NCBI GenBank assembly: GCA_050257635.1
Contig: JBLMXG010000344.1
Coordinates: 9,190 to 73,189 of the forward strand
Source: Chloroflexota bacterium
GTDB taxonomy: Bacteria > Desulfobacterota > Binatia > UBA9968
Length of the DNA stretch: 64,000 bases
Direction: 5' to 3'
The notes under the pieces are model-generated. The model made no database searches. It saw only the letters and a list, made by a program, of their open reading frames with translations, and was not told where the DNA came from. Position 1 is the first letter of the stretch. Every line of letters begins with the position of its first letter. Positions 56,811 to 64,000 of the stretch are shown in pieces. The translations under genes were made by a program, and so were the position numbers.

Positions 56811-57281
56811 TCAGCTCTTGTTAATTTTTTGGCATTCAGTCAACAGGTCTTTGGGGTTGCGTTCCCCCGCCGGAGTCACCGAGGCGGCGTAGCGCACCAC
56901 GCCTTGTTTGTCGATGATAACCGTAGCGCGGTCCGTGATCCCTTTATCTTCGAGATACACGTCATACTTCTTTGCCATCTCCCCCTTGGGATGAAAATCC
57001 TGCAGCAGCGGAAACGAGATGCCGCCCAGCGATTTCGCCCAATTGTCGTGGGAGAATCTGCTGTCCACACTCACACCCAGAACCTGGGTGTCACAGGCCT
57101 TGAACTCATCCTTGAGAGCTTCGAGTCCAGGCACTTCTTTGCTTCAAGTCGGTGTCCAATCCAGGGGATAGAACACCAACATGACGTTTTTTTGCCCCTT
57201 GAACTGGCCGAGGGAAAACTTGGTTCCCGCCAAATGGCTGGCTAGTTCGAAGTCCGGCGCTGTTTTGCCGACTTCAATCAT
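56811..57281 (-). CDS. PrxQ/BCP-type peroxiredoxin with in-frame TGA (candidate selenocysteine) at the peroxidatic position
   Basis: The track shows only 56811-57134. Reading the same frame from ATG 57281 (AAGGAGGAG 8 nt upstream) gives MIEVGKTAPDFELASHLAGTKFSLGQFKGQKNVMLVFYPLDWTPT[TGA 57144-57146]SKEVPGLEALKDEFKACDTQVLGVSVDSRFSHDNWAK... The TGA replaces the Cys of the FYPxDxTPxC(T/S)KE motif. Confidence 0.7.
57097..57132 (-). promoter_or_regulatory. Candidate SECIS hairpin
   Basis: mRNA GCCUGGACUC-GAAGCUCUCAAGGAU-GAGUUCAAGGC. A 10-bp stem with one bulged A and one G-U pair, starting 11 nt 3' of the UGA, with a G-containing apical loop. Confidence 0.45.
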
Positions 57282-57307
57282 GTCGATTACTCCTCCTTAA
57301 AAAAAAT

Positions 57308-57329
57308 TGAGCGCTCGCGGGAACGCTCA
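57308..57329. promoter_or_regulatory. Inverted repeat TGAGCG-N10-CGCTCA between -10 box and RBS of the prx gene (operator or 5'-UTR hairpin)
   Basis: Plus strand has tgagcg at 57308-57313 and cgctca at 57324-57329, located between the predicted -10 (57336-57341) and the Shine-Dalgarno. Confidence 0.35.
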
Positions 57330-57335
57330 CGGAAG

Positions 57336-57363
57336 ATTATAAACGGTGTGCAGACGAATTCAA
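57336..57363 (-). promoter_or_regulatory. Sigma70-type promoter of the prx-grx operon (TTGAAT-16 nt-TATAAT)
   Basis: Minus strand has TTGAAT (57363-57358), a 16-nt spacer, then TATAAT (57341-57336), about 55 nt upstream of ATG 57281. Confidence 0.55.
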
Positions 57364-57523
57364 CGTGGCCGGGGCGAACGAACAAAAAATCGCCCGCCGA
57401 TGAGCGGAGCGCGACCGGCGAATCGGGACGATCAATGACCAAGAGCCCGACCGGGATCGATCCAACAGGGGTCGGCAACGAAAGGCGATGATTTGCAGCG
57501 TCTGCGCAGAGACGACGTGTGAT

Positions 57524-58027
57524 TTATTTTGCCGCGGCCAAAACCGCGTCGTAATTCGGCTGCTCGCCGATGTTCGGGACATACTCGACATGCTTGAGCT
57601 TGTTATCTGCACCGATGACGAATACCGCGCGCGCAAGCACGCGATCGAGCGGGCCTCCGGAAATCAAAACGCCGTAGTTCTTGCCAAAAGACGCATCGCG
57701 GTGATCGCTGGCCGTGACAACTTTGTCGACGTTGGCAGCGCCACACCAGCGTTTCTGCGCGAACGGCAGATCCATGCTAACACAAACCACTTCGACGTTG
57801 GCAAGCTTGCTCGCTTCCTCGTTGAAGCGCTTGGTTTCGAGATCGCACACAGGGGTATCGAGCGAAGGCACCGTGGCGATGATGCGGGTTTTGCCGGTGC
57901 CGCTCGCCAGTGTGTAGTCACTCAAGTCCGCGCTTTTTTGCACCTTGAAATCCGGCGCGTTTTGGCCGACTTTTACTTCATTGCCCAGCAGCGTCAACGT
58001 CGCGTCTTTAAACTTCACCGTGGCCAT
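57524..58027 (-). CDS. tpx: Thiol peroxidase Tpx
   Basis: 167 aa. ..TVPSLDTPVCDLETKRFN.. (peroxidatic Cys) and ..VVCVSMDLPFAQKRWCGA.. (resolving Cys region), classic Tpx. Confidence 0.9.
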   Translation of the reverse strand: MATVKFKDATLTLLGNEVKVGQNAPDFKVQKSADLSDYTLASGTGKTRIIATVPSLDTPVCDLETKRFNEEASKLANVEVVCVSMDLPFAQKRWCGAANVDKVVTASDHRDASFGKNYGVLISGGPLDRVLARAVFVIGADNKLKHVEYVPNIGEQPNYDAVLAAAK

Positions 58028-58132
58028 AATCTGTCCTCCTGTTTGGTAGATTTGAATTGGGTCAGACCCATCCCCTTCCTTTTAACACCTCACAAAGAAC
58101 TCGCAACCGAGAAAAATAACCGGCACCCTGAC

Positions 58133-58894
58133 TCAAGGCAGCCGGAATTCGGACCGCAACTGCTCCCAGGAAGGCAGCCGCGCTAGCCGCTGTAAAACCG
58201 TGGTGGTCGGCGGCAAGATGGGAAAGTTACGCCGGTCGATGCGGGTAATCGCATCTTGGGCGCTGAGCCACAAGCTATGGGTGACTTCTTCAGAGCGGAC
58301 TAGCGCCGTTTGGTTGATCGGCTGAGCGGCGATGTAAAAGCGCGTGTCGAAGCGCATCGAATAAATTTCCGGCGTCACCCAATGATCGAAGTAAACCGCC
58401 CGCGCGAGGTCGCAAAAAAGATTTTCCGACTGCAAAAAAACGCCGAAGTTGAGCTGCTTGCTTACGATCGCCCGGCGCTTGAGCTCGATGCGCTGTCTAG
58501 TTGGCGGATCGCGCACATCGAGTTCCTCGCCGTTTTCGTTTACGCAAAGCAGGACGCCGACTTCTTCGAATAGCTCGCGTACCACCGCCACCCAATGGCC
58601 GAGCGCTTCGCTCGCTTCGTGCTGGTTATTTTTTAAAATAATCCGTGCCTGCTCGCCGGAAAGGCCGCGGCAGCGAGCCAAAATCGACTCCGAATAGTCG
58701 GATTCATGCACCGTGCCGCCGGGAAATACATAAAAGCCGCCGAGAAAACGCATCTCTTGCGGCCGGCGCGTCAGAAGGACCTCGACACCGCCATTTCCGT
58801 CGGCGCGGACCAGCACCACGGTCGAAGCATAGCGAGGGCGAACCATCTCGTTCAAAAGAGCGAGGCGCTGCGCGCCTAGCTCCTCACCATTCAC
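58133..58894 (-). CDS. NUDIX-family hydrolase
   Basis: 253 aa. Split Nudix box FPGGTVHESD....AVVRELFEEVGVLL (REx2EExGU part clear). Confidence 0.65.
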   Translation of the reverse strand: MNGEELGAQRLALLNEMVRPRYASTVVLVRADGNGGVEVLLTRRPQEMRFLGGFYVFPGGTVHESDYSESILARCRGLSGEQARIILKNNQHEASEALGHWVAVVRELFEEVGVLLCVNENGEELDVRDPPTRQRIELKRRAIVSKQLNFGVFLQSENLFCDLARAVYFDHWVTPEIYSMRFDTRFYIAAQPINQTALVRSEEVTHSLWLSAQDAITRIDRRNFPILPPTTTVLQRLARLPSWEQLRSEFRLP

Positions 58895-58897
58895 TTT

Positions 58898-59944
58898 TTA
58901 CCGCTTGCCGATATCCCGCAGCAGTTTTTCCCATTTCTCGCTTTCCTTTTCATATTGCGATGCTGACATCCCCGCCTCCGGGTAATAGCGCTTGAAGTTG
59001 GGCTTGCTGGTCGCGCTCTCTAGGCCGAATTTATGGAGAAATTTCTGTCCATCGGGGCTTAACAGGAAATCCGCAAACAGCAATGCCGCGTGAGGATGGG
59101 GAAGGTTGGCCGGCACGGCGACGCCACCCGAGTTGGTCGGCACCAGGTCCATCGGCACCCACTTGATGGGCGCGCCCTTGGCAATCGAGACCCGCGAGTG
59201 GCTGAGAAACACCGTGGGTGAGAGACCCAATTCGCCGGAAATTACCATGTCGAGAATCGCCCGTCCCGAGACCGAGTGGAGCGTCACCTGCTGCCCTTTG
59301 AGTTTGCGGACGAATTCGGCGCCCTTGCTCGCCAGCATCGCCGCGATCACGCGCGAACCGGTGTCGCTGGTGGCAAAACCGATTTTGCCCTTGAGTTCTG
59401 GCTTCAGTAAATCTTCGAACGTCTTCGGCACTGCGCCGCCCTGAACGACGTTGGTGTTGTAGGCGAGTCCGACATAAGAGTCGCGGTCCGTGGCCCAGTA
59501 GACCATGCCCTTCTCGGTTTTTTCCTTGGCATCGTCGGGGTACTGCGCCAGATAAGGAGAGAAATACGGCGCCAGCATTTTGTATTCCTGCATGACTTTT
59601 AGCACCGGGAAAGTGGTCTCGATGCAGTCGACCAGGAACCGTTTCGCCTGGGCCTCCTGCACGACCCGCTGCATGATCGCGTCGCTGTTGCCGCGATAGA
59701 CTTCGAGCTTGATTCCCGGATATTTCGCCTCGAAGACTTTGGGTGCTTCGGTATTGGGACCGCCGGTGAGCGACGTATACCACATCAACTTCCCTTCATT
59801 TTTCGCGCCCTCGTAAAGCACCTTCTCGCGGTCGGCCTTGTTGTATGCCGCCAGCTCGGCCACAGACATAGGATTTCCCGTCTGCGCCCAACCCGATGAA
59901 GCCCAATTGAGCGTGACGAGCAGCGCCAATACCAGCACAATCAT
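58898..59944 (-). CDS. ABC transporter substrate-binding protein (family-1, Fe3+/polyamine-like), orphan
   Basis: 348 aa. Signal peptide MIVLVLALLVTLNWASSGWA. Collinear similarity to the SBP at 22445-23539 (..KLMWYTSL.., ..YRGNSD.., ..HPHAALLFADFLLSPDGQK..). Confidence 0.8.
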   Translation of the reverse strand: MIVLVLALLVTLNWASSGWAQTGNPMSVAELAAYNKADREKVLYEGAKNEGKLMWYTSLTGGPNTEAPKVFEAKYPGIKLEVYRGNSDAIMQRVVQEAQAKRFLVDCIETTFPVLKVMQEYKMLAPYFSPYLAQYPDDAKEKTEKGMVYWATDRDSYVGLAYNTNVVQGGAVPKTFEDLLKPELKGKIGFATSDTGSRVIAAMLASKGAEFVRKLKGQQVTLHSVSGRAILDMVISGELGLSPTVFLSHSRVSIAKGAPIKWVPMDLVPTNSGGVAVPANLPHPHAALLFADFLLSPDGQKFLHKFGLESATSKPNFKRYYPEAGMSASQYEKESEKWEKLLRDIGKR

Positions 59945-60047
59945 TCTGTTTTCTCCTTTGCTCGTAGGAACTGAGATTACATTAATGGATTAACATCTAC
60001 GGAACTCAGATCAAACCCGTTGTTACGTGGCCGGCAGGCCGCCCGGT

Positions 60048-61163
60048 CTAGTTTTTGGCTTGCAGAATTCGGTAAGCAGCGACGGGACGGTGAAAACCTT
60101 TGAGTGTCAGATCGCCCACGGATTCGGCCTCGACCCAATCTTCGACTTGAGTGAGCAAACGTTGCGGTACCAAGATCTCTCCGGGCTTCGCCTCGCCGCA
60201 CAAGCGCGCCGCGAGATTCGGGACGCTGCCAATCGCGCCGTACTCCCAGCGCCCTTCGTAACCGATCGCGCCGATAGTCGCGTAGCCCTGCGCGATGCCG
60301 ACGCCGAAATCGAGCTCATGGCCGAGTTTCCGCCACCTGAGCTTCAATTGTACGACGCGCTCGCGCATGGCGAGCGCCATGCGCACCGCGCGCTCCGCAG
60401 GATTGGCCACGGGCAGCGGATCGTTGAAGAAAATCAGCATACCGTCGCCCGCGAAATGCTCGAGGGTTCCTTCGCAATCCGCGATCAACTCGCCCATCGC
60501 CGCGTGATATTCGTGCAGAATATCCATCACCTCTTCCGGCTCCGCCGTCTCGGCAAAGGCGGTGAAACCGCGCAGGTCAAGATAGACCACCGTGAGATCG
60601 CGCCGATGGGTTTTGAGCGGATCGTCGGTCTCGCCGCTGACGATCAATTCGGCGAGCTGCGGCGAGAAAAATCGTTTCAGCCGTTCCAATCGTTCCAGTA
60701 GTTCCACTTGTTCCTGGACTCGACGCTCTAAAGTTTGATTCCACTCAACAAGTTGACGGGATTGATTTTGAACCGTGTCGTGCAACTCTTTGATGCGCAA
60801 TAGCGATTTGACCCGCGCCAGCAGTTCGGCCTGATGGATCGGCTTGGTGAGAAAGTCGTCGGCGCCCGCTTCGATGCCCTTGACCCGTTCTTCGGCCGGG
60901 TCGAGGGCGGTCACCATGACTACTGGAAGCATCGCCGTGGCGGCATCTTCACGAATCTTGCGGCAGACCTCGTAACCGCTCATCTCCGGCATAACCACAT
61001 CCAAAAGAACCAAATCAGGACGCTCCGCTGATATCTGTTTCAATGCATCGTGACCTGACGAAGCGGTCACAACGTTGTAACCTTTCACGGCCAACAGATC
61101 GGCGAGAAGTTTCACATTCCGCGCCGTGTCGTCAACGATGAGAATTTTTGCCGGTGAGTTCAC
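60048..61163 (-). CDS. Response regulator receiver domain fused to class III adenylate/guanylate cyclase
   Basis: 371 aa. REC (KILIVDD..DLVLLDVVMPEMSG..VMVTA), a coiled-coil linker, then the cyclase homology domain (TVVYLDLRGFTAFAE..GDGMLIFFNDP..GIAQGYATIGAIG). GTG start. Confidence 0.85.
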   Translation of the reverse strand: MNSPAKILIVDDTARNVKLLADLLAVKGYNVVTASSGHDALKQISAERPDLVLLDVVMPEMSGYEVCRKIREDAATAMLPVVMVTALDPAEERVKGIEAGADDFLTKPIHQAELLARVKSLLRIKELHDTVQNQSRQLVEWNQTLERRVQEQVELLERLERLKRFFSPQLAELIVSGETDDPLKTHRRDLTVVYLDLRGFTAFAETAEPEEVMDILHEYHAAMGELIADCEGTLEHFAGDGMLIFFNDPLPVANPAERAVRMALAMRERVVQLKLRWRKLGHELDFGVGIAQGYATIGAIGYEGRWEYGAIGSVPNLAARLCGEAKPGEILVPQRLLTQVEDWVEAESVGDLTLKGFHRPVAAYRILQAKN

Positions 61164-61220
61164 GCTTGAATGCCGTCACGAATCATCGGCGAAGGGTAAT
61201 GGATTCGGATATTGGAATTA

Positions 61221-61315
61221 CCTCTCGCCAAGTCGCCAAGTCGCAAAGTTGGGATATGAGAAATCTGAATCTTTTTATCCGTCATGACTTAGCGTCTTTG
61301 CGCCTTTGCGAGAGA
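61221..61315. repeat. Empty inverted-repeat pair (L1/R1) of the same family that flanks the GxxExxY gene; MITE/REP-like hairpin
   Basis: L1 is CCTCTCGCCAAGTCGCCAAGTCGCAAAGTT (61221-61250). R1 is ACTTAGCGTCTTTGCGCCTTTGCGAGAGA (61287-61315). The arms are largely complementary and built of NAAGNCGC octamers, with a 36-nt loop. Lies in the CheY / RR-cyclase spacer. Confidence 0.65.
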
Positions 61316-61345
61316 AACTATTATTTCCGGTCTCCTTGCTCCTCG

Positions 61346-61726
61346 CTACTTAGTACTCACTTGAAGAACCCGCTCCACTTCTCCGAGAAAATCTTTCAAG
61401 GTGATCGGCTTGGTTTGATAGCCGTCGAATCCTTCTGCGAGCATGGCTTGGCGATTGTTCGTCATCGCCGAAGCAGTGACAGCGACAATCGGGATTTTTT
61501 TCGTCTTGGCATCGGCCTTGAGCTGCTTCATCGCCGCGATCCCGTCCATACCAGGGAGCTGGATGTCCATCAAGATCAGCGCGGGCGATTGCTCCACCGC
61601 AAGCTTCAGCCCATCCTCGGCCGTTTCCGCTTCAACAGTCCGATATCCCTTCACCTGCAACACATCGCGGCAAAGCTTCCGGTTCTTCTCGTTGTCCTCG
61701 ATGATCAGAATAAGTTGGTTAGCCAT
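61346..61726 (-). CDS. Single-domain response regulator (CheY-like)
   Basis: 126 aa. ILIIEDNEKN..LILMDIQLPGMDG..VAVTASAM..K. Confidence 0.88.
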   Translation of the reverse strand: MANQLILIIEDNEKNRKLCRDVLQVKGYRTVEAETAEDGLKLAVEQSPALILMDIQLPGMDGIAAMKQLKADAKTKKIPIVAVTASAMTNNRQAMLAEGFDGYQTKPITLKDFLGEVERVLQVSTK

Positions 61727-61740
61727 AGGACTTCGGATTT

Positions 61741-62230
61741 TCCTCTCGCAAAGGCGCCAAGGCGCAAAGTTTAGAAACCTATTCGGAAAGTCGGCTCATT
61801 GCGCAACCGTGACTCAGTCGTCCTTCAGCCCATTCACTACGCGAGTGATGCCTCGTTTCATCAGAGCTTCACCGAAATTCAGTAGAAAACCAAGCTTGCA
61901 GCCGGTTAAACGCAAGTAGGTCTGAACCTGCTTTTTGTGGGCCTCGCTTATCTGTTCTACTGACTTTAGCTCCACAATCACTTGTTTGTCGACGACGATA
62001 TCGGCTCGAAATGCCTCGTCGAATCGAACGCCTCGGTATTTGATCGAAATGGGTACTTGACGCTCAACCTTGAGTCCCCTCTGCTTGAGTTCGTGCGCCA
62101 AGGCGACTTCGTAAACCGTCTCAAGGAGGCCGGGCCCCAATTCTCGGTGCACAGTCAGGCCCGAGTCGACAATTATTTTCCCGATTTCATTCTCCTTCAT
62201 AACTTAGCGCCTTAGCGCCTTTGCGGGAGA
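61741..62230. mobile_element. Candidate inverted-repeat-bounded cassette carrying the GxxExxY gene
   Basis: L2 is TCCTCTCGCAAAGGCGCCAAGGCGCAAAGTT (61741-61771). R2 is AACTTAGCGCCTTAGCGCCTTTGCGGGAGA (62201-62230). The inner 24 nt are 22/24 complementary. R2 fills the whole 36-bp gap between the cassette gene ATG and the kinase stop. No transposase present. Confidence 0.4.
61814..62200 (-). CDS. GxxExxY protein (PD-(D/E)XK nuclease-like superfamily)
   Basis: 128 aa. Eponymous motif GLLETVY within HRELGPGLLETVYEVALAHEL. ..FRADIVVDKQVIVELKSV.. (D..ExK-like core). C-terminal GFLLNFG. Confidence 0.85.
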   Translation of the reverse strand: MKENEIGKIIVDSGLTVHRELGPGLLETVYEVALAHELKQRGLKVERQVPISIKYRGVRFDEAFRADIVVDKQVIVELKSVEQISEAHKKQVQTYLRLTGCKLGFLLNFGEALMKRGITRVVNGLKDD

Positions 62231-62236
62231 TAAGTT

Positions 62237-64000
62237 TTATTTCATCGGCAGTGTAAATGTAAAAGTGCTTCCCCTGCCCACTTCGCTTTCCACCCAGATC
62301 TTGCCGCCGTGCAGTTCAACGAATCGTTTGGTTAACGCCAAGCCCAGCCCTGTGCCTTCGCGCTTTTGGGCGTAGTTGCTGCCCGCCTGGCGAAACTCCT
62401 CGAAGATTGCTTCTTGATCTTCTTTCGCGATGCCGATGCCGGTATCCACCACGGATACGATTACCGCGCTGTCGCCCAGGCTCGCCTCAACTTTGATCTG
62501 GCCACCCTCGGGTGTGAATTTCACCGCGTTAGACAAGAGATTGACCAGCACCTGTTTCACCTTGCGCTCATCACCTGTAAAGTCGCCGAGCCGATCATCG
62601 ATCGTGCGATCGAGCTTGATCCCATGCCGGCTCGCGCGTTCTCGTATCAGCAAAAGCGCATTCTCGATCGCATCGGGCAGATAGAACGTCGTAGTTTCCA
62701 ACTCCATCCGCCCTGCTTCGACTTTGGAAAGATCAAGTATGTCGTTGATCAGCGACAGCAAATGGCGGCCAGAAGAGAGAATGTCGTCTATGTACTCGGC
62801 TTGTTTCTCGTTCATATCACCGAACAACCGCTCCTGCAGCACTTCGGAAAAGCCGATGATCGCGTTCAGCGGCGTGCGCAGTTCGTGCGACATATTGGCG
62901 AGAAACTCCGACTTGTGTCGGCTGGCGATTTCGAGCTGCTTGCTTTTCGCTTCCAACTCGCGGAACAGGCGCGCGTTGTGGATCGCCAACGCCGACTGGG
63001 TCGCGAAAGTCTGCAAAAGCTTCACTACTTCCGGTTCGAACTCCCCGACTTGACGGCGCCACACTGTTAGCCCGCCCATGATCTGCTGCTCGCGCAGGAT
63101 CGGCACGGTGAGCAATGAGCGGTAACCCAAGCGATTCAGAACAGGTCTCACCCTTGAAACTCCCCGATCCTGCAACTCGAACGTATCGAGGATTTGCACC
63201 GGGGCCCGCGTGCTAGCGGCCTGGCCGGTAGCACCTTCACCCAGCCGGATGCGTGCTGTACGCAGAGCCTCCACAGCCTCCGCTTCCATGCGATGACTCG
63301 CCCGCAAGTTAAACTCCTGCACCGCCTCGTCGAATTCGTAGATAACGCCGCAATCCGTTCCTGACAATTCGACCGCCCGCGCGACAATGGTTTCGAGCAC
63401 CGTTTCCAGATCTAGCGTCGAGCTCACCGCTTGCCCAACCTCGCTCAGCGCTTTCATCTCCTCGACGGACTCCACCAACTCACGCGTCCGTTCTTGCAAC
63501 TCGTGGAACAGCCGCACGTTCTCGATGGCGATCACCGCTTGGTCCGAGAAAGTCTCAAGAAGTTTGATTTGCTTCTCGGTAAAGGGACGGACCTCAGTTC
63601 GGCGGATAACGATGGAGCCAATAGGTTCTCCCTGACGCAACAGCGGGGTGCCCAGCACCGTCCGGCTCCGAGCGACTTGCTGAAGACCTCTTGCGATAGG
63701 ATATTCCGTCTCGATCTCAGTCGTAACGTCATGCACATGAACGGTTCGTCTGTCGATCATGGCTCGGCCACCCACGAAGCCGCGGCTGATCTGCAGGGAC
63801 TCGCTCGGCACTGGAATCGAGCCGAATTTGGCTGCAAGATTGACCCGGTCATCCAGCCGACGATAAATCAGCGCATCGTTTGCATCGCAAATCCGCGCGG
63901 CATTCTCCGCAACCACATCGAGCACGGGCTGGATATCGGTCGGTGAGCTGGCGATCACCCGCAGGATCTCGCTCGTCGCCGTCTGTTGCTCCAGCGCCTC
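62237..64000 (-). CDS. Multi-GAF sensor histidine kinase (C-terminal 587 codons; gene continues past the right edge)
   Basis: Reading frame stays open to position 64000 (..[28 protein letters not shown].., the usual GAF-preceding motif, so the track start at 63958 is internal). Two GAF domains, H-box [20 protein letters not shown] boxes ..[10 protein letters not shown].. and [18 protein letters not shown]. Confidence 0.88.

Follow-up and report, generated by a model that had tools for sequence, protein, structure and literature searches.

Miniature inverted-repeat transposable elements (MITEs), repetitive extragenic palindromic (REP) sequences and bacterial interspersed mosaic elements (BIMEs), enterobacterial repetitive intergenic consensus (ERIC) sequences, and Correia elements are all short intergenic palindromic repeats. 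Free-standing homing endonuclease genes include the seg and mob genes of T-even phages, and the homing enzyme I-Ssp6803I is a PD-(D/E)XK nuclease. The intervening sequences (IVSs) of 23S rRNA, known from Leptospira, Coxiella and others, are elements of about 430-760 nt in which a stem of about 28 bp surrounds one small open reading frame (ORF) (PMC4990558). They have no transposase and are distributed sporadically, and horizontal transfer is suspected; the hypothesis that they are mobile is unresolved, and their origin and the role of the ORF have been open questions since the early 1990s (PMC4990558). Here we analyze a 64-kb stretch of DNA (the window; 64,000 nt of contig JBLMXG010000344.1, from a bacterium of the class Binatia) in which a gene of the GxxExxY family lies inside a two-component operon, between a histidine kinase gene and a CheY gene, enclosed by inverted repeats that we call arms. 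Our best reading is that the gene and its arms form an IVS-like or MITE-like selfish cassette that is exchanged through recombination, with its own nuclease as the possible driver, by a mechanism that we infer.

The cassette is a compact insert occupying positions 61727-62236 of the window and consisting of an outer flank, a 29-nt arm, the gene from ATG to stop, an inverted 29-nt arm, and a second outer flank. The arms share the motif CTCYCGCnAAGnCGCnAAGnCGCnAAGTT, 29 nt comprising three tandem 8-nt units, and are complementary to each other at 26 of 29 positions; in a repeat search they extend to 34 nt (61743-61776 and 62196-62229, 85% complementary). A first-pass annotation made from the sequence had noted two repeats bracketing the gene, with inner 24-nt stretches complementary at 22 positions. 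We recovered this 24-nt core with mismatches between the 5' arm (R2) and the 3' arm (L2) at 2 of 24 positions, and the bracketing holds, but the count does not: there are four arms, because a second, gene-less pair (L1 at 61222-61250 and R1 at 61287-61315, 36-37 nt apart) lies in the spacer between CheY and the cyclase gene that ends the operon. The window contains four copies of the degenerate motif, where 0.01 would be expected (for the 24-nt core, 0.00 chance matches are expected). All four arms are within 1 kb of the GxxExxY gene, and a motif scan found no fifth copy in the other 63 kb. The loop between L1 and R1 starts with ATGACGGATAA, the same sequence as the opening codons of cassette genes in related loci, so the gene-less hairpin (61222-61315) looks like a relic left by deletion within a cassette.

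The fit between arms and gene is tight at the 5' end. The 5' arm stops exactly at the ATG (62198-62200) and, as the first-pass annotation had remarked, R2 fills the gap upstream: together with 7 nt more it accounts for all 36 nt back to the kinase stop codon (62237-62239). The units of this arm contain AAGG motifs that resemble ribosome-binding sites (Shine-Dalgarno-like). At the other end, 42 nt separate the stop codon from the 3' arm; this stretch varies, and in several relatives only 0-2 nt of it are left. A direct-repeat family (D1) reaches 15 nt past the core, and the 3' outer flank contains ATCCGA, which is common to other copies. The kinase, the 128-aa ORF, CheY and the cyclase are all on the minus strand in the ORF list and form one co-directional set with the PF13366 (GxxExxY) gene between kinase and CheY, as previously described. 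The absence of a transposase or integrase was likewise borne out: the only ORF in the cassette encodes a PD-(D/E)XK protein, and neither kind of enzyme was seen in the ORF list for positions 57000-64000 or in the gene content of the related loci that we examined. We rejected an integron gene cassette as an explanation, because the arms lie on both sides of the ORF whereas an integron cassette has a single attC downstream of it.

We gathered relatives of the operon by exact-protein look-ups and a metagenome scan, and mapped their genes by TBLASTN. In 47 of the 51 non-redundant relatives whose CheY is ≤75% identical to the window's, the kinase ends 1-29 nt from the start of CheY, often overlapping it, and the gap between CheY and the cyclase gene is usually 5-67 nt. 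Because spacing in these more distant relatives is so short, we regard the cassette as an insertion. Two closer relatives, L149 and L154 (CheY 81-82% identical), are similarly tight, reading …CAATAAAAGTTTGATG. The first-pass annotation had allowed that the gene might occupy the same position in all relatives; instead, empty sites exist in those 47 operons and in L149 and L154. The comparison shows that the operon junctions were originally tight or overlapping and that they received both the cassette and the hairpin without a gene (61222-61315) by insertion. Within the closer clade (CheY ≥76% identical) the spacers are widened and their contents differ between loci. Where a cassette is present, the end of the kinase gene reads …CTGCCG|ATCGGATAA GAATATT CTCYCGC, from which it follows that the element's outer flank supplies the last two codons and the stop codon of the kinase. 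Most close relatives hold a cassette in the same slot, and the insertion is old in the window's lineage.

To examine the distribution of the arms more widely, we scanned one genome per GTDB species (596 Gb in total) with a 28-nt degenerate motif. At least 119 genomic stretches from many phyla contain it, against a calculated chance expectation of about 0.03, and it is also present in 24 IMG/VR viral contigs. Among the matches listed are Syntrophobacter, Acidobacteriota, Binatia, Planctomycetota, Verrucomicrobiota, Bacteroidota (including Flavobacterium isolates), Myxococcota, Chloroflexota, Armatimonadota, Gammaproteobacteria (a Wenzhouxiangella isolate), and others. Complete genomes with a match include CP065003.1, OZ245894.1 and NZ_CP176426.1. 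The repeats are therefore not confined to this locus, which the first-pass annotation had considered possible. Single genomes can have many copies: there are at least nine loci in one Syntrophobacter metagenome-assembled genome (MAG) and at least seven in another, and several MAGs have 7-9 or more. A consensus built from 210 arms has a CTC prefix that is 98-99% conserved, even in partner arms that were not selected by the search pattern. Of 55 adjacent arm pairs among the matches listed, 45 are empty hairpins whose arm starts are 31-135 nt apart, and about nine have a distance of 414-508 nt. Gene-less hairpins thus far outnumber gene-bearing cassettes, and at least some of them arise by internal deletion. 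The neighbors of the empty hairpins are co-directional in 19 cases, convergent in seven and divergent in four, but these figures come from crude ORF calls and we do not use them as evidence.

We also saw further arm variants of the same design, made of CACAGAG, CGCCAAGGA or CCGCAGAGG units (L228:5270-5460, L229:5454-5700, L252:1300-1975). Different variants are sometimes neighbors, in viral contigs among other places, and the repeat superfamily therefore extends beyond the motif we searched for. Separately, in the CheY-cyclase spacer an outer palindrome, of the type GTGAGGAGTAAG… / …CTTACTCCTCAC, surrounds the CGCnAAG hairpin; in the window it lies at 61316-61345 and 61164-61206, and it is plainer in L164:1250-1320, L168:320-470 and L140:420-585. 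Some hairpin loops elsewhere hold another palindromic repeat, GTCATTTCGACC…GGGATGACGGGC. This nesting suggests that loops may be preferred landing sites.

Seven other GxxExxY genes (51-79% identical to the window's) were found by TBLASTN in loci that had been selected by their repeats, among the matches listed, and each adjoins arms. For a sample selected by protein alone, we took eight GxxExxY genes from plasmid and chromid records in PLSDB. All six of the plasmid-borne genes with annotated neighbors are co-directional with both of them. In Sphingomonas parapaucimobilis (NZ_CP155749.1; L251:1471-1899) a cassette with CGCGAAG arms lies between fabD and fabG, only 3 nt before fabG, within the conserved fatty-acid synthesis operon fabD-fabG-acpP-fabF. 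The Bacteroides finegoldii gene follows radA, and the Bernardetia gene lies between ade and a mannose-1-phosphate guanylyltransferase gene. Sphingomonas (TTCACGCGAAGGCGCGAGGACGCGAAG-ATG), Bacteroides (TTCACCACAGAGGACGCAGAGGACACGGAG) and Bernardetia (AACACAGAGATAAGGAGAACCACAGAGA) have arms of 25-30 nt with the same three-unit design in the same position relative to the gene. In Gemmatirosa the gene lies between complete short hairpins, and Treponema has a weak 11-nt arm pair. Controls using neighboring genes scored at the level of shuffled sequences, except that two A+T-rich, low-complexity matches reached the top of the shuffle range. Repeats therefore accompany other GxxExxY genes too, namely a second subtype in the same operon slot (below) and four or five of the eight plasmid-borne genes, which come from other phyla. 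Taken with the empty sites and the copies of the repeat elsewhere, this supports the first-pass reading of the locus as an inserted cassette that is mobile or delivered by recombination, and we consider it very probable that the cassette is an inserted member of a mobile or recombining family.

The same operon junctions house a variety of other small genes. GxxExxY genes of the window's type, with CGCnAAG arms, are present at 10 loci of the closer clade, one of which (L142) has two diverged cassettes in tandem. The second GxxExxY subtype, 40-42% identical to the first, occupies the same slot and has arms, ACTCAC(CACGAAGGn)x3 … (CCTTCGTGn)x3GTGA, that differ in sequence and share the design. 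In the spacer of L150 there is an internally deleted cassette of this subtype that retains both arms and the 3' end of the gene, and it shows how gene-less relics arise. Genes for the four-helix protein of 23S rRNA IVSs (PF05635) occur in either slot with a third arm type, the inverted repeats AAATTCGAAGCACGAAATCCGAAATTCGAAAC / GTTTCGGATTTCGTGCTTCGAATTT, which are also made of short tandem units; these are in L133 (4467-4832, CheY-cyclase spacer), L139, L143, L152, L153 (two copies) and L157. A 96-aa GIY-YIG protein is encoded in the kinase-CheY slot of L155 (2142-2432), and the same is found in L156. Its gene is flanked by GTCATTCCCG…CGGGAATGAC, with an inverted repeat GTCATTCCCGTGAAAACGGGAATCC … GGATTCCCGCGTGCGCGGGAATGAC, and is a second kind of hairpin-bounded mini-nuclease cassette. 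PIN/Phd toxin-antitoxin pairs are found in the same spacers, mostly on the opposite strand (L145:974-1671, L150:2731-3395, L159:1229-1890, L215:3959-4617, and L218/L219), and some slots in the closer clade have nothing inserted. These kinase-operon junctions thus gather several kinds of selfish small genes. In L171 we noticed an AbiEii-like ORF.

An alternative is that the arms are a MITE- or REP-like repeat moved in trans by a transposase encoded elsewhere, such as a REP-associated tyrosine transposase (RAYT) or a DDE enzyme, with the GxxExxY, IVS-protein and GIY-YIG genes as mere passengers. The great excess of empty hairpins, the existence of singleton arms, tandem arrays (in L066 and L071) and arms in both relative orientations, the unrelated cargo families in similar cassettes, and the nested palindromes are all what such a repeat would produce, and the variable positions of the arms act like those of independent copies of a terminal repeat. 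A passenger picked up at random, however, would not be expected to co-diverge with the arm type across phyla, or to fit from arm to arm with its ATG and stop codon abutting them, as many of these genes do; the gene is under strong purifying selection; and in the window the arms are found only beside it. There is no transposase in or near any locus examined, no Y1-transposase (RAYT) gene near the repeats in the 64-kb window or the loci examined, and no evident target-site duplication. We consider transposition in trans unlikely.

Evidence that arms and gene evolve together comes from sequence comparisons within and between phyla. Across 11 cassettes like the window's, the mean identity of the 3' arms is 88.6%, and the gene is 85.6% identical at first and second codon positions and 44% identical at third positions, which puts the constraint on the arms at about the level of that on the protein's first and second codon positions. 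The ratio of nonsynonymous to synonymous divergence (dN/dS) in GxxExxY genes is 0.04-0.10, with synonymous sites near saturation. From the arm identity, the dN/dS values and the saturation together we conclude that both protein and arms are strongly constrained and that the divergences are old. Across loci, pairwise identities of the kinase and CheY are well correlated (Spearman rho = 0.71, P = 6 x 10−8), but GxxExxY identity does not correlate with that of either flanking gene (rho = -0.18 and -0.20; these are comparisons of identity matrices, not reconciled trees). The clearest case is L061, whose flanking genes are 57% and 45% identical to those of other loci while its GxxExxY protein is 76-80% identical. 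The relationships of the cassettes are thus decoupled from those of the genes around them.

Arm type is instead the better guide to protein relationships. The Binatia subtype enclosed by CACGAAG arms shares 58-60% identity with the protein of Bacteroides finegoldii, whose arms are of the CACAGAG type, but only 40-44% with the Binatia subtype that has CGCnAAG arms. Conversely, proteins with CGCnAAG arms are 50-73% identical to each other among Binatia, Wenzhouxiangella (Gammaproteobacteria), Pirellulales, a Sphingobacteriia MAG and an unclassified bacterium. The proteins therefore group by arm type and not by host phylum, and the comparisons indicate that arms and gene are one evolutionary unit, found in several phyla, in which the protein co-diverges with the arm type.

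It might be argued that the cassette is simply a domesticated, immobile part of the operon: an ancient insertion kept because its small nuclease, or the spacer that it makes, benefits the host (for example in DNA repair, defence or the tuning of two-component signalling), with gene conversion among paralogous operons causing the phylogenetic incongruence. A cassette of the same type is found in this slot in the majority of close relatives, and also in paralogous kinase operons, which accords with this idea, as do the saturated synonymous sites, the strong purifying selection and the lack of polymorphism in soil metagenome contigs from the window's population. Domestication does not account for equally close relatives that have other cargo, or nothing, in the slot, nor for cassettes of the same design in unrelated operons of other phyla (fabD-fabG and radA), cassette lineages that cross phylum boundaries, and the existence of decayed copies. 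We judge it very unlikely.

The GxxExxY protein itself matches PF13366 (PDDEXK_3) over its full length (E = 2.4e-42; 144.4 bits, against a cut-off of 22) and TIGR04256 (GxxExxY; E = 8.8e-43; 145.4 bits, against a cut-off of 35). Its 128 residues include the motif G24LLE27TVY30 and the catalytic residues D67…E77LK79, of which E27, Y30, D67, E77 and K79 are invariant in two alignments of homologs. A sequence search of the Protein Data Bank gave no match, but an AlphaFold2 model (mean predicted local distance difference test score 85) has the restriction-endonuclease-like alpha/beta fold. Its best Foldseek match is the Cas4 protein SSO0001 (4ic1; E = 2.5e-4, template modelling score 0.60), followed by enzymes of the lambda exonuclease family, and weak profile matches to Cas4 agree with this. 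On the basis of the model we interpret the protein as a minimal PD-(D/E)XK nuclease of the Cas4/lambda-exonuclease kind. Cas4 carries an iron-sulfur cluster held by four cysteines, and such a cluster is impossible here because the window protein has a single cysteine. We saw no CRISPR-cas genes in positions 57000-64000 or in the related loci. PADLOC gave only weak similarity to Cas4, and we rejected a known defence system as an explanation. An exhaustive search found 20,059 clusters of GxxExxY proteins at 50% identity (E ≤1e-3). Some database proteins of 250-295 aa (P0241, P0242, P0244 and others) contain a tandem pair of GxxExxY domains, which may reflect genuine fusion or else read-through of paired cassettes such as those of L142. 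A scan of viral contigs for GxxExxY relatives gave one weak match, so the gene has no obvious vehicle in phages.

At the RNA level, folding of the operon transcript is predicted to bring the two arms together in a stem that surrounds the ORF (minimum free energy -180.7 kcal/mol, z = -3.9) and hides the AAGG motifs 5' of the AUG. The gene-less hairpin has a predicted fold of -40 kcal/mol (z = -3.5), with a mismatch at every fourth base. No promoter or terminator is predicted in the cassette beyond one weak intragenic consensus match. An Rfam search of positions 60900-62500 at a permissive threshold gave chance-level matches only and no match to rRNA; there is accordingly no known RNA family in this region. 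The cassette would thus be read within the operon transcript, with no promoter or terminator of its own, and its arms would form a stem of about 29 bp resembling the IVS stems of 23S rRNA that are cleaved by RNase III. Such a stem could limit the harm done to the host operon and throttle expression of the nuclease, and could possibly direct cleavage by RNase III. Transcript data consist of a metatranscriptome contig from a related organism (97% identical) that runs from the 3' end of CheY into an R1-like arm, and two RNA-seq runs containing 7-14% of words, too sparse to map processing sites.

One could therefore suppose that the element works on RNA and that its spread is incidental: the stem would be cut by RNase III or would protect mRNA ends, uncoupling kinase from CheY and controlling translation of the enclosed gene, and the protein, which might act on RNA, would bind its own arms as an autoregulator. 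This would suit the pairing of the arms in the predicted transcript with no internal promoter or terminator, the Shine-Dalgarno-like units that run up to the AUG, the co-directional orientation of all six annotated plasmid cassettes, the metatranscriptome contig that enters an arm, and the presence of the IVS-protein family in the same slots; the 28-bp terminal stems of IVSs are cut by RNase III in vitro (PMC4990558). If pairing were what is selected, however, the two arms should compensate each other's changes, and they do not. The five variable positions in the arms match the partner arm in 41% of cases, compared to 46.5% in shuffles, and L1 and R1 are mismatched at all five. What is conserved is sequence and not pairing: an arm pair appears to behave as two copies of a sequence-specific site and not as a compensated helix, and we rejected selection for a perfect helix as the cause of arm conservation, given this lack of base-pair covariation. 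Empty hairpins also occur between convergent and between divergent genes (by the crude estimate above), and a function in RNA alone leaves the cross-phylum distribution and the incongruence with flanking genes unexplained. We think it improbable that this is the whole explanation.

We favor instead the explanation that the locus is an inserted selfish cassette, exchanged in a homing-like manner through its own nuclease, which would recognize the arms; we put the probability of this account as a whole at about 0.5. The arms would be sites recognized by their sequence, most probably by the nuclease encoded in the cassette. After a break in or close to an arm pair or an empty hairpin, a gene-bearing copy would act as the repair template, with the arms serving as homology. 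Spread of this kind would explain both the exchange of cassettes between operons in the same kind of slot and the clustering of hairpins beside the gene. Taken separately, the step in which the cassette's own nuclease drives its movement is a tentative one, to which we give rather less than even odds.

Several points weigh against this account. Nuclease activity, arm binding and transfer are all inferred from sequence. The 29-bp arms are short for RecA-dependent repair. IVS-protein genes, which lack a catalytic fold, sit in cassettes of similar design, so the arm-bounded architecture does not need a nuclease encoded by the element, and the active agent may be a host factor or an enzyme working in trans. 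Arms are also found singly and back-to-back, the complete hairpins of Gemmatirosa and Wenzhouxiangella stand beside the gene and do not enclose it, and there are no detectable arms at three of the eight plasmid-borne GxxExxY genes. Among close homologs (≥72% identical) every gene with visible context follows a GAF kinase, usually starting exactly 36 nt past its stop codon, so that, with synonymous sites between cassettes saturated, movement seems to be rare or confined to one kind of site. No target-site duplication is evident between filled and empty junctions, where the empty sites are diverged and the ends of the element fuzzy. We looked for an excised or empty allele in soil metagenomes that contain the window sequence and found no clean joint; what looks like excision joints are further hairpin copies that the arms had drawn in. 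The cassette's long residence under strong purifying selection could instead mean that it has a role beneficial to the host. Finally, transcript evidence is minimal.

The GxxExxY family is very large and has no assigned function. In the full-text literature that we searched it has a few mentions, in passing, and we found no description there of repeats flanking its genes, so within that literature the architecture of an arm-bounded GxxExxY cassette appears to be undescribed. The locus and its relatives offer a testable anatomy: a single operon family provides sites that are empty, sites that are filled, decayed sites and sites with other contents. Should the protein recognize the arms, the GxxExxY family would gain a function, and widespread intergenic hairpin repeats would be explained. 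It would also be clearer why small 'orphan' genes turn up within conserved operons, among them fabD-fabG, cas operons (PMC3936711) and the two-component operon studied here; a survey in 2013 reported PF05635 genes wedged between cas genes, without an explanation (PMC3936711). Insertions of this kind break the translational coupling between operon genes and may thereby affect regulation. A much broader proposal, which we hold to be rather unlikely, is that the GxxExxY family comprises minimal homing nucleases, a large and unrecognized class in which each enzyme is specific to its own arm type of three tandem units, and that with the four-helix IVS and mini GIY-YIG proteins they make up a 'hairpin-homing' superfamily in which the classical 23S rRNA IVS is the rRNA subset and the CGCnAAG, CACGAAG and CACAGAG hairpins are relics and landing pads.

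The layout of the operon is given in Table 1. Full-length relatives of the kinase are GAF-repeat kinases of 1800-2300 aa. Homologs of the window's CheY with 57-92% identity come from soil metagenomes and from MAGs labelled Candidatus Binatia or Deltaproteobacteria, and those at 83-92% identity come from soil MAGs of Binatia or 'Deltaproteobacteria'. We also noticed an upstream ORF of eight codons (MIRDGIQA*, 61160-61186, minus strand) whose stop codon overlaps the GTG start of the cyclase gene (GTGA). A similar one (MTPDGIQA*) is present in the relative L124 and none in L130; it may be a translational-coupling leader that arose after the spacer expanded.

Table 1. Features of the kinase/CheY/cyclase operon and its cassette, in window coordinates and in the order of transcription.
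Feature	Position	Strand	Basis and remarks
Histidine kinase, 3' part, GAF-GAF-HisKA-HATPase_c	62237..63958	-	Pfam; upstream gene of the operon, continues past the window end
Outer flank, kinase stop to 5' arm, AACTTAT in mRNA sense	62230..62236	-	Sequence and junction alignment
5' arm R2, CTCCCGCAAAGGCGCTAAGGCGCTAAGTT in mRNA sense	62201..62229	-	Repeat search, motif scan
GxxExxY gene, 128 aa	61814..62200	-	PF13366 and TIGR04256
3' untranslated stretch, 42 nt, gene stop to 3' arm	61772..61813	-	Sequence
3' arm L2, CTCTCGCAAAGGCGCCAAGGCGCAAAGTT on the plus strand = AACTTTGCGCCTTGGCGCCTTTGCGAGAG in mRNA	61743..61771	+	Repeat search
Outer flank of 3' arm, GAAAATCCGAAGTCCT in mRNA, immediately 5' of the CheY ATG	61727..61742	-	Junction comparisons
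CheY-like single-domain response regulator, 3' of the cassette	61346..61726	-	Pfam
Gene-less hairpin, R1 + loop + L1, in the CheY-cyclase spacer	61222..61315	.	Repeat search, motif scan
Response-regulator adenylate/guanylate cyclase, final gene of the operon	60048..61163	-	Pfam

The cassette combines features of several known systems. Its protein shares the D…ExK catalytic core of Cas4 (SSO0001, 4ic1) and lambda exonuclease, but is only about 60% of their size. Like free-standing homing genes, it is a small nuclease-fold ORF placed co-directionally between conserved genes, with a sporadic distribution and a phylogeny decoupled from its flanks, and a GIY-YIG mini-nuclease occurs in the same slot in L155 and L156. 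Unlike those genes, it has conserved inverted arms and leaves gene-less hairpins behind, and its 128-aa protein has no separate DNA-binding domain.

With MITEs, REP sequences, BIMEs, ERIC sequences and Correia elements the cassette family shares short inverted repeats that are intergenic or within operons, present in multiple copies, and sometimes nested or in tandem. The terminal inverted repeats, the many short copies and the deletion derivative in L150 are MITE-like, the abundance of intergenic palindromes in one genome (at least nine loci in a Syntrophobacter MAG) recalls REP sequences and BIMEs, and some copies provide the upstream gene with its stop codon, as MITE/REP elements do. The family departs from MITE/REP elements in that its arm sequence is conserved across phyla and is not species-specific, and from MITEs in that its 'autonomous' form encodes a 128-aa Cas4-like nuclease, with which the arm type co-diverges, and no recognized transposase.

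The resemblance to 23S rRNA IVSs lies in cassette size, in terminal inverted repeats forming a stem around one small ORF, in the lack of a transposase, in a sporadic distribution with suspected horizontal transfer, and in the IVS-type PF05635 genes found in the same operon slots of the window's relatives. The cassette differs from an IVS in being located at an intergenic junction of an mRNA and not in helix 25 or 45 of the rRNA, in carrying a PF13366 PD-(D/E)XK gene and not PF05635, and in having arms of three tandem 8-9-nt units that are conserved across phyla, with many gene-less copies.

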